This document shows positions 24,502-30,853 of a DNA stretch of 64,000 bases, piece after piece. The notes under the pieces were generated by a model, which saw only the letters and a list, made by a program, of their open reading frames with translations, was not told where the DNA came from and made no database searches. Location: NCBI RefSeq assembly GCF_044324785.1, contig NZ_CP172127.1. The stretch is one strand, 5' to 3'. The position numbers and the translations under genes were made by a program. How positions within the stretch are numbered: the first letter of the stretch is position 1; the number at the start of each line of letters is the position of its first letter. This DNA comes from Escherichia coli (GTDB taxonomy: Bacteria; Pseudomonadota; Gammaproteobacteria; Enterobacterales; Enterobacteriaceae).

Positions 24502-26598
24502 TTAGCGGAAATTGACGCTACGGTCGCTGGTCATGTCATACAACTGGAACTTACGCCCAAGTTGCTGACCACCGTCACGCGTCAGCGGCGTCCAGCCAAT
24601 TGCCGCACGGCTGCGTGTCGGGCCAGACGAGAAGAGATCCAGCGGTACAGAGACATACACGCCTTTGGTGAAGTCCCCTTCGCCGTACTCCTCTTTCGAA
24701 ACATTCGTGATCGTGGCATAGCCACCCACCACCACGCCGCTATCAAAGCGTTTGGCGATCTCCAGCGTGCCGCCTTTATCCCCTGCCAGATACTGCCCGA
24801 CGCTCGCTTTCACTAACACATCCTGAGCGAAAGATGGCGTCCAGTATGCGGTCAGATGTCCGGTTTTCACGCTGTAGTCGGTGAATTTCATCATATCTTT
24901 TGCGCTACGCCAGTCGCGCTGTTTAACGTAGTTGGCATCCAGACCAAACGCCCAGTTGCTATCCAGCGGGCGATACAACACTTCTGCCCCCACGCCGCCA
25001 AACATGGTTTCGAGATAACCTCCGTAGACCTGACCGTAGAAGCCGTTGCCCAGATGCTGGAAGTAGTTGGCTTGCAGGTTATTCACATAGACATCGTTCT
25101 GCACATACTCGCGCACATGGGTACGAACGCGCGGTAAGTGCGAGTCCTGCGGCGGATTGGTGTAGTTAAACTTGTCGTAGTTGTTGGCAAGATTTGCAAA
25201 CAGGCTGCCGGTGGTCAGCAGATGGTCCGTCAGCCACAAATCTGCCGTTCCCATCACGCCCAGCTGATACATGTAAAAGTTTTCCGGGCCACCGACCGAC
25301 TGGTTCAGCACCGGATCGATATGGAAATCAAAGCGTGATTTGTCGATATACCAGCCCTGCTCGGTGGACTGCGGAACCACTGGCTCGACGCGTTTTTGCG
25401 CCAGCGTCGTTTCGTGGCCCAACGGCTCTCCGGCGAGATGATTTTTCAGGCTGGCGACATCGGTTTCCGTCGTCACCTGCGGCATGTTAAGGCGATTTTC
25501 CGTAATGCGGATCGTTTTGATCCCATCCGGCAGATCGTTCATCACGATCCGATTAGCACGGATGATCCCTTCGCGCGAATCACGATATTTCACCTGCTCG
25601 CCGGTAACATACAGCGTATCGCCTTTCGCCTGGATCTGTGGATCGGCAAGTCCGGCATTGTATTTCAACAGCGTTAACTGATTCGCCACCACCGAATGCT
25701 GCAAAATGGCATCCTGCGGCTGCGGTTGATATTGCGGGCGGGCGTTATCGTTGTAAGACGGGCGCAGATCGTTAAAGTTGGTGCGCAACGTAACGCCAAA
25801 CATAAATGTGTTGCCACGTTCATAGCTAAGGTTAACGTCGGCCCAATCGGTAACGCGATAAATCGCACCGACGTTAAACTTACTTTTTTGCTCCAGCTTC
25901 CCGGCAAAATCCTGCTGATAATTATTGCCTTCATACTCCAGTTTCAGGCGCAGCGGTTGCCAGGGCGTCTGGTATTCCACGCCGCCAAACAGTGAGGCAG
26001 GACCGTGGAACATCTGGCTACCGTCGATAGATCCCGCCTGTTTGTAGCTGTTATCGCGATAGCAATATTTATCACTGGCTGAACAGAGCGGATTTTTCAC
26101 ATTACCGCTGGTGCCCAGATATCCCCAGCCCAGGCCGAGCGTAAAATCGAACGGCCCCCAGGCTTTGCTGGCAACAAGATATTCCGCATCAAACAGCCCC
26201 GTACCGCCGATATCCCGCGCACCAACCGCCACTTGCGGCAGCCAATAACTCTCTTCCCACAAACGCAGTTTGAGATCGAAGGCTTTATCTTTATACGTTT
26301 GATCACCAGAGAACGCTTCGACGCTGCTGTACTGCCGGGTGCGCACGTCGGTGTAGCGCAGCGTTGTTTCCAGCCACGGGAAGAGTTGCACTGAAGCTGA
26401 GTAATAACGGTACTGATCGTTATCGCGATAGTTCAAACTCAACTCCCCTTCCCGCGCCATGCGGGCGGTGGGCGTTTGTAATAATCCTACGCCACCGAAA
26501 TCCGACTGCGACGGACCAATGGGCGCAGGATATGTTTCGCCGTAGCAAGCTGTGCTAATGCCCAGCGCCAGTAAGCTAAGCAGATGTCTTTTTTTCAT
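24502..26598 (-). CDS. yjbH: Outer-membrane protein YjbH (exopolysaccharide-associated yjbEFGH operon)
   Basis: 698-aa ORF with an N-terminal signal peptide and beta-rich composition ending in an aromatic residue (...SDRSVNFR). Fourth gene of the yjbEFGH cluster. Confidence 0.85.
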
Positions 26599-27335
26599 TA
26601 TTGAGGTATCCGCTGCGTCAGAGTCTGAAGAATGTCGGCGTTAAGGGCATCAGGCGTCTCACTCCAGACGGAGTCCGCGAGGCCAACATAAATAATGCTG
26701 CCGGGCATCGGCTCTACGTGACGCTTGTTCCAGTAAGCCACCGGCGCTTTTTGCGTGCGTCCGTCCGGGTAAACCACCCACGCGTAGCTGCGATCCGCAC
26801 CGCTGAGCAGGCTCTGGTCAGAGAGATAGCTCGCCACGTCGCGACCTGGAGTGAATGGCTGCTTGCCAGGACGGCTGATAAGCCCGAACAACGTGACCGT
26901 GGACGGCGGTGGTCCGACCCACAGCGTGTAGTTGCCCTGCAACGGCGGGTTACCGCGTTCGGCAACGCGGACGATATCGGGATCAAGATTGATTTTTTGC
27001 CTGCCCGTCACTTTCAACGCCTGAATTTGCTGGCGTAAGGCGTTAATCGCAGCGGCATCGTCGGCGCTGGAATCTGCGGCCAGTTCTGCCAGCCGTGTCA
27101 GTAGCGCCTGCTGCTGACGCAATGCTGCCGCCGTTGCCAGCTCTTCGCTAATCACCGCACCAGGCCACCAGCTGTTTGCCAGCCGCGGTTGGCCTACCAG
27201 GTCGATTAAATGCTCTGCACCCGTCAGCGTTTTGGCCTCACTGCTGCTATTGCTGAATACCTTGACGGTTCCCGCCGCGAAGACCGATGACGCCCCCACA
27301 CTCAAAATCAATGCGACAATAGTTTGTTTAATCAT
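26598..27335 (-). CDS. yjbG: Periplasmic/secreted protein YjbG
   Basis: 245-aa product [23 protein letters not shown]... with a signal peptide. Its start overlaps the yjbF stop (ATGA) and its stop overlaps the yjbH start. Confidence 0.85.
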
Positions 27336-27970
27336 TGTTTTGCCGCCTTGATGAGAGTGGTTTTCACCGGGAAATAATCCGCGCCGAGATACTGTTCCGA
27401 CTGGCGAATTTGCCCTTCGCTGTCGATCCAATAGCGGTTATGCCAGCGCGCCTGGTCGGTGGAGACTTCTTCGTCCAGCACGCGAACCGGGGTTTCATCG
27501 CTGCCGACCTTAACGGTACCGGTGCCATCCCATTTGAAGACTGAGCGTGCGGTGGCGTAGCGTACCTGCTGGTACTCGGTCCAGCCCATCGTGCGCGTCC
27601 ATGTTGCACCATCAACAATTTGTGCGGGTTTAATCAGCGGGTCGGCGGCAAGGTTATTCACTTCAATCAGGTTGTCGCCGCCAAGCAAAGTCTTCACCAG
27701 ACGACCATGTTGTGTGACAAGAGTGGCCTGATCCTGAGTGACCCATTTTTGTTGTCCGTCTTCAGCGAAGGCCAGCACCACAAACAATTGCGGCCCGCCA
27801 TTAAGCTGCATGTACTGGCTGGCGTAGGGCATATTTTGAATATCATCGTCCGTCAGCTGTACGCCTGGCGTGCCGAACAGACTGTCCCACAGTGAATTGC
27901 CCAGCTCTTTAGTCGTGGCTGAACAGGCCTGTAATAGCAGGCAGATAAGAATGAGTGCAGGTCGCTTCAC
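27332..27970 (-). CDS. yjbF: Lipoprotein YjbF
   Basis: GTG start at 27970 after GGAG gives MKRPALILICLLLQAC... with a lipobox (LLQAC); 212 aa. The ORF-track extension to 28000 is rejected. Confidence 0.8.
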   Translation of the reverse strand: MKRPALILICLLLQACSATTKELGNSLWDSLFGTPGVQLTDDDIQNMPYASQYMQLNGGPQLFVVLAFAEDGQQKWVTQDQATLVTQHGRLVKTLLGGDNLIEVNNLAADPLIKPAQIVDGATWTRTMGWTEYQQVRYATARSVFKWDGTGTVKVGSDETPVRVLDEEVSTDQARWHNRYWIDSEGQIRQSEQYLGADYFPVKTTLIKAAKQ

Positions 27971-28083
27971 GACTCTTCTCCAGAGGGGCAGAATAACCAC
28001 ACCGGAGTGTGGTTATGGTAAATCCCTTCATACTTCAAGCCACAGATGCAATGACTCGAATTATTTTGGGGATACATACTTTA

Positions 28084-28326
28084 TTACTGGGTACTGGTGG
28101 TCGTGGTTGTTGTGGTCCCGGTATTAGAACCATCACCGCCACCGGTTGCCGCGAGCGCGACACCCACCGCCGAGCTTACGGTGCTGACGCTGGTCGCGGA
28201 GGAACTCCCCGCCGAAACCGACGTTGCTGCCGACCCTGCCGCTTCGCCCACCTGTACAGGTGCAGCCCACGCAGAAGTCGCCGCAAGCGCAGATATGGCA
28301 AAAATGCCATACAGAACTTTTTTCAT
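28084..28326 (-). CDS. yjbE: Small secreted low-complexity protein YjbE
   Basis: 80-aa product [48 protein letters not shown]...[10 protein letters not shown]: signal peptide plus a Ser/Thr/Ala/Gly-rich tail. First gene of yjbEFGH. Confidence 0.85.
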
Positions 28327-28632
28327 AACAATTTCCCTTCATTGAATGAATGGAGATTTACCCAAAAACATTTCGGGCGGGATCGAGTATACACAACTAA
28401 AGCATGCGAATTACGGCGCGGGGAATTAGCGATGGCGTTTTAGGATAATTGGAATTAATATCAAATATAAGTTTCAACTTATATATAAATAAGATTAAAA
28501 ATCAAAAAGTTAAAATAGAATCAAAAATAATCAATCTACGTATTTTCCGAAATCAATCACGATTAAAAATTTATTTTAGGATTAACCTCACAGCATGATT
28601 TCCGTTAAATCACAGACAAGGGGATTTATCTG

Positions 28633-28666
28633 ATAAAAAATGCCGACATAACGTCGGCATTTTTAT
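28633..28666. terminator. Bidirectional Rho-independent terminator downstream of pgi
   Basis: aaaaaa-tgccgacataacgtcggca-ttttt: a perfect hairpin flanked by A and T runs. Confidence 0.75.
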
Positions 28667-28679
28667 TAAGGTTATTTAA

Positions 28680-30540: not shown

Positions 30541-30853
30541 TATAAATGTACTACCTGCGCTAGCGCAGGCCAGAAGAGGCGCGTTGCCCAAGTAACGGTG
30601 TTGGAGGAGCCAGTCCTGTGATAACACCTGAGGGGGTGCATCGCCGAGGTGATTGAACGGCTGGCCACGTTCATCATCGGCTACAGGGGCTGAATCCCCT
30701 GGGTTGTCACCAGAAGCGTTCGCAGTCGGGCGTTTCGCAAGTGGTGGAGCACTTCTGGGTGAAAATAGTAGCGAAGTATCGCTCTGCGCCCACCCGTCTT
30801 CCGCTCTTCCCTTGTGCCAAGGCTGAAAATGGATCCCCTGACACGAGGTAGTT
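30541..30853 (+). ncRNA. lysC 5' leader containing the lysine riboswitch (L-box)
   Basis: Long structured leader directly upstream of lysC (gtactacctgcgctagcgcaggccagaagaggcgcgttgcccaagtaacggtgttggaggagccagtcctgtgataacacctgagggggtgcatcgccgaggtg...), which I recognise as the E. coli lysC lysine-riboswitch leader. Aptamer boundaries are approximate. A possible promoter (TTGACA at 30513..30518) lies just upstream. Confidence 0.7.

Follow-up and report, generated by a model that had tools for sequence, protein, structure and literature searches.

Conserved stop/start overlaps between yjbF, yjbG and yjbH of Escherichia coli as probable sites of translational coupling

The genes yjbF, yjbG and yjbH, the three distal genes of the previously described yjbEFGH exopolysaccharide operon, are joined by two standard stop/start overlaps, ATGA and TAATG, which most likely serve translational coupling that would supply YjbF, YjbG and YjbH in the fixed ratio of a heteromeric complex. 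Both overlaps, and a coupling interpretation of them, are already in print for the yjb genes or their family. Huber et al. 2023 tabulate yjbF-yjbG (-4) and yjbG-yjbH (-1) in their supplementary Table 2 and flag both pairs 'CMPLX not' (PMC10666635), and according to Larson et al. 2021 the genes of gfcBCD and of homologous operons may be coupled in translation through their 1-4 bp overlaps, thereby preserving stoichiometry (PMC8592465). As standard operon architecture the overlaps carry little weight as a discovery and change no current view; what is added here is the quantified conservation of the -4/-1 geometry, both between yjb and gfc and among Enterobacteriaceae, together with synonymous (RNA-level) constraint placed exactly at both internal initiation regions.

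The DNA analysed, referred to below as the window, is a stretch of 64,000 nucleotides from an E. coli genome (contig NZ_CP172127.1). The region of interest corresponds to the pgi-yjbEFGH-yjbT-psiE-xylE neighbourhood of E. coli. Its yjb genes lie on the minus strand, and it contains the following features, listed in the direction of transcription.

28084..28326, minus strand: yjbE, first gene of the operon (open reading frame list, Pfam PF11106)
27332..27970, minus strand: yjbF coding sequence, a 212-aa lipoprotein, with GTG start at 27970..27968 and TGA stop at 27334..27332
27286..27368, minus strand: predicted hairpin at the yjbF/yjbG junction, in which the Shine-Dalgarno (SD)-like site pairs with yjbG codons 8-17 and ATGA lies in the loop
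27343..27349, minus strand: SD-like AAGGCGG, 7 nt upstream of the ATG of yjbG and within the final codons of yjbF, 16S duplex energy -6.9 kcal/mol
27332..27335, minus strand (minus-strand reading): ATGA, yjbG start over yjbF stop, the -4 junction
26598..27335, minus strand: yjbG coding sequence, 245 aa, GfcC family, with ATG at 27335..27333 and TAA at 26600..26598
26607..26630, minus strand: cluster of rare codons and synonymous constraint at the 3' end of yjbG, 9-32 nt upstream of the ATG of yjbH
26630..26628, 26612..26610 and 26609..26607, minus strand: the cluster codons CTT, CGG and ATA, respectively
26596..26600, minus strand (minus-strand reading): TAATG, yjbH start over yjbG stop, the -1 junction
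24502..26598, minus strand: yjbH coding sequence, 698 aa, YjbH/GfcD family, with ATG at 26598..26596
24454..24490, minus strand: terminator-like hairpin past yjbH, with a 9-bp GC-rich stem, a 10-nt loop and a T-run, read by eye

The gene names given in an earlier note on this DNA are right, as Pfam families and RefSeq names agree: the yjbF product matches PF11102 (E=2.8e-63, with identical RefSeq extent), that of yjbG matches PF20616 and PF06251 (GfcC_N/GfcC_C) and that of yjbH matches PF06082 (E=2.9e-271). Pfam order and RefSeq names place four co-oriented genes, YjbE/GfcA-like, YjbF/GfcB, GfcC-family and YjbH/GfcD, in the yjbEFGH/gfcABCD-type arrangement, and synteny (pgi ... psiE/xylE) and near-identical DNA establish orthology with K-12 yjbEFGH. 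Of 5,426 complete E. coli genomes, 5,413 match the locus with an identity of 95-99% and a query coverage of 80% or more, the closest being that of strain N3 (99.0% identical over 4 kb). Operon status is attributed to Ferrieres et al. 2007, as cited in PMC8592465; expression of the operon accompanies Rcs induction or osmotic stress. A consensus scan, limited for terminators to loops of up to 8 nt, found no minus-strand promoter- or terminator-like site within the operon; the hairpin at 24454..24490, with its longer loop, was overlooked by this pattern scan. The yjbE-yjbF spacer in the window is 113 nt, without overlap, and the two downstream junctions leave no space for a terminator or promoter. 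An Rfam search at both junctions found no family. One riboswitch-screen paper includes the yjb operon in a listing, and nothing more.

On the minus strand, gcggcaaaacaATGAttaaa contains the yjbG ATG (27335..27333) and the yjbF TGA (27334..27332) in a 4-nt overlap, within the context GCGGCAAAACA-ATGA-TTAAA; in atacctcaaTAATGaaaaaaag the yjbG TAA (26600..26598) and the yjbH ATG (26598..26596) share a single A, within the context ATACCTCAA-TAATG-AAAAAAAG. The coordinates that the earlier note had given for the two overlaps are exact: the open reading frame list ends yjbF at 27332 and yjbG at 26598 and starts yjbH at 26598, and the RefSeq/PGAP annotations of the strain N3 genome and of K-12 contain the same -4 and -1 overlaps.

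For comparison across species, an orthologue set was assembled by a genome scan with a 13-sequence GfcC alignment, from which the best 80 of 197 matches, all Enterobacteriaceae, were taken. The counted set comprised 79 loci, namely those of 78 Enterobacteriaceae species and the window, with YjbG 54-96% identical, and stops and starts were placed by tblastn and open reading frame logic. This is the comparison of junctions that the earlier note had proposed. Among the matches listed, 75 of the 79 loci have a yjbF/yjbG (F/G) distance of -4 and the other four one of -1, and the yjbG/yjbH (G/H) distance is -1 in 70 of 79, +2 in six (mostly Kosakonia), -4 in two and 0 in one. At a single locus among these matches, that of E. 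whittamii, the F/G overlap reads GTGA. The non-overlapped yjbE-yjbF spacer is far less constant, spanning 60 to 187 nt in the same listed orthologues. Four apparent non-overlap outliers were rejected as such: in one the yjbF frame is shifted within a G-run but the ATGA is intact, and three carry a REP-like insertion after yjbG codon 4; in these three species the frame is still open from the overlapped yjbG start, at which they were counted.

Ten distant homologues at 27-42% identity, sampled singly from metagenomes and genomes, were read with raw gene-caller coordinates, which give F/G distances of -4, -4, -4, +3, +2, +1, -4, -4, -1 and +19 (9/10 within -4..+3) and G/H distances of -1, -1, -4, -4, +127, +2, +45, -4, -4 and -7 (8/10 within -7..+2). 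Tight junctions between the three genes are thus an old feature of the family, steadier at F/G than at G/H. The conserved geometry is in large part trivial, because the protein termini are themselves conserved.

The K-12 genes gfcB, gfcC and gfcD of the group 4 capsule operon are paralogues belonging to the same Pfam families and arranged in the same order as yjbF, yjbG and yjbH, and their products are 39%, 42% and 65% identical to YjbF, YjbG and YjbH, respectively. Their junction geometry is identical, -4 (ATGA) followed by -1 (TGATG), but the junction letters differ (ccATGAat and acTGATGaa), and gfc lacks the AAGGCGG and CGGATA motifs that are conserved in the yjb lineage. The two operons also end differently: that of gfc runs on into gfcE-etp-etk, whereas yjbH precedes the terminator-like hairpin.

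Constraint at the nucleotide level is found at both internal starts. The calculated duplex energy with the 3' end of 16S rRNA is -6.4 kcal/mol for yjbF (GGAG) and -6.9 kcal/mol for yjbG, against an in-CDS background with a mean of -2.8 kcal/mol and 9% of positions at or below -6; for yjbH no SD-like match was found by this measure, its value of -3.3 kcal/mol lying near the background mean. Among the matches listed, the Lys codon of AAGGCGG is AAG in 78 of 78 species, compared with 35% in the background, and the adjoining Ala codon is GCG in 85%, compared with 38%. This constraint reads straightforwardly as that of a candidate Shine-Dalgarno site for yjbG, located inside the upstream gene. In only five of 782 informative yjbF/G/H columns does a synonymously rare codon persist in 80% or more of the species listed, and three of these five (CTT, CGG and ATA) fall within the last ten yjbG codons; among the listed matches CGG is conserved in 78/79 and ATA in 60/70. 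RNA-level constraint, as judged from codon usage, thus sits at the internal initiation regions of yjbG and yjbH.

In the mechanism that we favour, a ribosome ending at the yjbF stop would step back one base to the yjbG ATG and reinitiate there with the aid of the AAGGCGG embedded in the last yjbF codons, and a ribosome ending at the yjbG stop would restart at the overlapping yjbH ATG. Because yjbH has no recognisable SD, it would be expected to depend most on reinitiation. The outcome would be that the lipoprotein YjbF, the periplasmic YjbG and the outer-membrane YjbH are made in a fixed ratio, serving a heteromeric complex that would resemble the one formed by GfcB, GfcC and GfcD. Both yjb junctions fall within the overlap classes (4 nt or 1 nt, same strand) of termination-reinitiation pairs, and are of the same types as the -4 and -1 pairs studied by Huber and co-workers (PMC6728339, PMC10666635); like those pairs, yjbG has an SD motif inside the upstream gene, whereas yjbH, unlike them, has no SD-like motif; in E. 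coli pairs of this kind such a motif is customary but not required. Reporter assays showed coupling for four of five native E. coli pairs with a -4 overlap, and SD removal lowered reinitiation in 4/5 tested E. coli pairs (PMC6728339); coupling collapses once the distance reaches ~20 nt (PMC10666635). A literature search found no ribosome-profiling or reporter data for yjbF, yjbG or yjbH.

The case for a YjbF-YjbG-YjbH complex at the outer membrane is made by extension from paralogues of only 39-65% identity. Complex formation has been shown for the Gfc proteins: GfcB and GfcC form a 1:1 dimer with a KD of about 100 nM, and this dimer binds GfcD with a KD of 28 uM (PMC8592465). A single predicted protein among the homologues fuses YjbF and GfcC domains, and would be supportive of such a complex. 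Short-distance gene pairs are, moreover, 4.5-fold enriched for complex subunits (PMC10666635). Given the GfcB-GfcC-GfcD interaction data, the 'no complex' flag that Huber et al. assigned to the yjb pairs is probably outdated.

Overlap alone does not prove coupling, and the overlaps might instead be neutral, the default end state of start and stop drift in a compact operon, with the cistrons mainly initiated de novo, yjbG through its own AAGGCGG and yjbH by way of an A-rich, unstructured stretch around AAUAAUGAAAAAAAG. According to the published genome-wide summary in PMC10666635, -4 (ATGA) is the commonest spacing of same-strand neighbours in E. coli, followed by -1 and -8, and 707 of 2,987 same-strand pairs are spaced -8 to +6; these spacings are common with or without complex subunits, 69.6% of short-distance pairs encoding no known complex. 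The -4/-1 pattern is accordingly no rarer than chance for an operon, and the drift of the junctions among -4, -1, 0 and +2 between genera is also what neutrality would allow. It is conservation across species that exceeds chance: among the matches listed no junction in 78 species is looser than +2, whereas the length of the E-F spacer differs by over 100 nt. Also difficult to accommodate under neutrality are the clustering of synonymous constraint just upstream of both internal starts, the lack of an SD-like match for yjbH and the stoichiometric complex made by the paralogue products (PMC8592465), and we regard this explanation as unlikely. The earlier note had held that the overlaps imply tight translational coupling of the three envelope proteins. 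Coupling is indeed plausible in view of the literature on -4 pairs, the conserved junctions and the Gfc complex, but the wording was overstated, since bioBF, itself a -4 pair, is initiated de novo and uncoupled (PMC6728339), and yjbG has an SD-like site of its own at -6.9 kcal/mol, a reasonable one that makes de novo initiation possible. A third overlap in the 44 kb around the yjb locus, of -1, lies between two sorbose PTS genes.

Coupling might also arise mainly by unmasking, upstream ribosomes melting a hairpin so that free 30S subunits then bind, rather than by reinitiation of the same ribosome. In the window, the predicted ~23-bp F/G hairpin is long and imperfect, CCAC-CUCAUCAA-GCGGCAA pairing with UUGUCGC-UUGA-UGAG-GUGG so that AAGGCGG is sequestered against yjbG codons 8-17 and AUGA is left in the loop, and it is more stable than shuffled sequence (z=-3.76, 0/200 shuffles equally stable, local MFE -26 to -33 kcal/mol). 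The corresponding prediction for E. whittamii is stronger still (z=-6.0), and the positions at which K-12 or E. whittamii departs from the window are mostly unpaired, K-12 differing at one paired and some unpaired positions. A smaller predicted stem, AGCGGAU/AUCUGCU, brackets TAATG, and in the window the pairing probability of both upstream regions exceeds that in all 20 downstream-shuffled controls. Sequestration of the downstream SD in the predicted hairpin recalls the structure-gated coupling of atpHA (Rex et al. 1994, as cited in PMC6728339); unlike that of atpHA, the window hairpin is predicted only, and is not conserved beyond Escherichia. Across 76-79 species among the matches listed, stability showed no excess over downstream shuffles (mean z -0.31 for F/G and -0.67 for G/H), nor was pairing of the upstream regions enriched (0.59 vs 0.54 in shuffles for F/G, 0.67 vs 0.62 for G/H), so that conserved masking hairpins were rejected as a family-wide feature and the hairpins are treated as predictions specific to Escherichia. 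The whole G/H region, moreover, has a z of only -0.37, and any signal peptide offers Ala-rich (GCC GCN) codons with which GGCGGC will pair. We therefore consider it improbable that unmasking is the main route, and retain same-ribosome reinitiation as the preferred form of coupling.

The overlaps also withstand the suggestion, raised in the earlier note, that yjbG or yjbH truly starts elsewhere: that they are annotation artefacts is scarcely credible, for whilst the yjbG frame in the window reaches back to an in-frame TTG at 27431, 32 codons upstream of the ATG, the overlapped codon is the earliest possible start at 76/78 (yjbG) and 66/78 (yjbH) of the orthologous loci listed and, for yjbH, in the window as well. 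Signal-peptide-like N-termini that later starts would remove follow both starts directly, protein alignments start at residue 1, and the N-terminus of the paralogue GfcD was examined experimentally by Larson et al. (PMC8592465). The start of yjbF is GTG in 76 of 78 orthologues among the matches listed.

Only one of these observations has some novelty, the cluster of conserved rare codons that precedes the yjbH start, which itself lacks an SD. Speculatively, the last ten yjbG codons may form a cis-element that works independently of an SD and is dedicated to the (re)initiation of yjbH or to its regulation, a proposal drawn from codon conservation that we hold to be doubtful; such an element could act by a programmed slowing of ribosomes as they approach the stop codon, by forming a local hairpin or as a protein-binding site of the GGA type, and a literature search found no support for reading the CGGATA motif in terms of CsrA. 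If the proposal were true, yjbG/yjbH would offer a natural model for what specifies reinitiation at -1 overlaps that lack an SD. Conserved geometry, constrained sites and the Gfc interaction data are in place, and yjbFGH is therefore worth including in a coupling assay. A fourth of the five conserved rare-codon columns is yjbF codon 3, which is CGA in 78 of 78 species among the matches listed.

The features of the yjb operon and its 3' flank lie in the window as follows.

27961..27980, minus strand: yjbF initiation region, conserved at nucleotide level across 79 loci
27971..28083, minus strand: yjbE-yjbF spacer
26607..26630, minus strand: rare-codon cluster (CTT, CGG, ATA) in the last 10 codons of yjbG, from codon columns across species
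24454..24490, minus strand: terminator-like hairpin (GGTGCCAGT/ACTGGCACC) and T-run, 3' of yjbH
24177..24455, plus strand: yjbT, a small ORF convergent with yjbH

Across the 79 loci the yjbF initiation region has the consensus GGAGAAg.GTCGTGAAGCGAC, with GTG as the start codon in 76 of 78 and the rare CGA as codon 3 in all 78. The GTG is enclosed by a 4-bp mini-hairpin (GUCG/CGAC), which may confer a low or regulated rate of yjbF initiation. The preceding spacer measures 113 nt in the window; among 67 other Enterobacteriaceae its length runs from 60 to 187 nt, with a median of 63 nt, and Escherichia therefore carries approximately 50 additional nucleotides between the first two cistrons.

Only five of 782 informative codon columns hold a synonymously rare codon kept in at least 80% of species, and three of these five are the CTT, CGG (78/79 species) and ATA (60/70) of the yjbG end, directly 5' of a yjbH ATG that has no SD-like match. 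At the other end of yjbG, Cedecea sulfonylureivorans, Buttiauxella izardii and B. agrestis (loci L074, 3462-3484; L080, 3486-3508; L081, 3456-3478) carry the palindrome TCGGATAAGCGYRGCGYCATCCG, which we take to be a REP-like element, together with flanking sequence directly after codon 4. The reading frame stays open from the overlapped start across the whole insert, which adds a long Arg/Lys-rich extension preceding the signal-peptide core.

The hairpin downstream of yjbH was not picked up by the pattern scan because its loop is 10 nt long; it is also faced by yjbT, and could be active in both directions.

At the protein level, a 494-residue metagenomic representative (P0216) combines YjbF, GfcC_N and GfcC_C domains in one predicted protein, which may be either a naturally fused F-G protein or an artefact of gene calling. 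Supplementary Table 2 of Huber et al. (PMC10666635) marks yjbF-yjbG, yjbG-yjbH, gfcB-gfcC and gfcC-gfcD as 'CMPLX not' in its entries for these pairs (NGHB#3895/3896 and #944/945). Larson et al. 2021 (PMC8592465) showed interactions among GfcB, GfcC and GfcD, and all four pairs are therefore probably misclassified in the complex-enrichment statistic of Huber et al.

Rfam matches in the window were as follows, with STnc430 located between pgi and yjbE and oriented opposite to yjbE.

28523..28671, plus strand: STnc430, an enterobacterial sRNA (88.4 bits; gathering score 47)
30566..30762, plus strand: lysine riboswitch upstream of lysC
19122..19192, minus strand: naRNA4
56666..61677, minus strand: complete rRNA operon with tRNA and StyR-44
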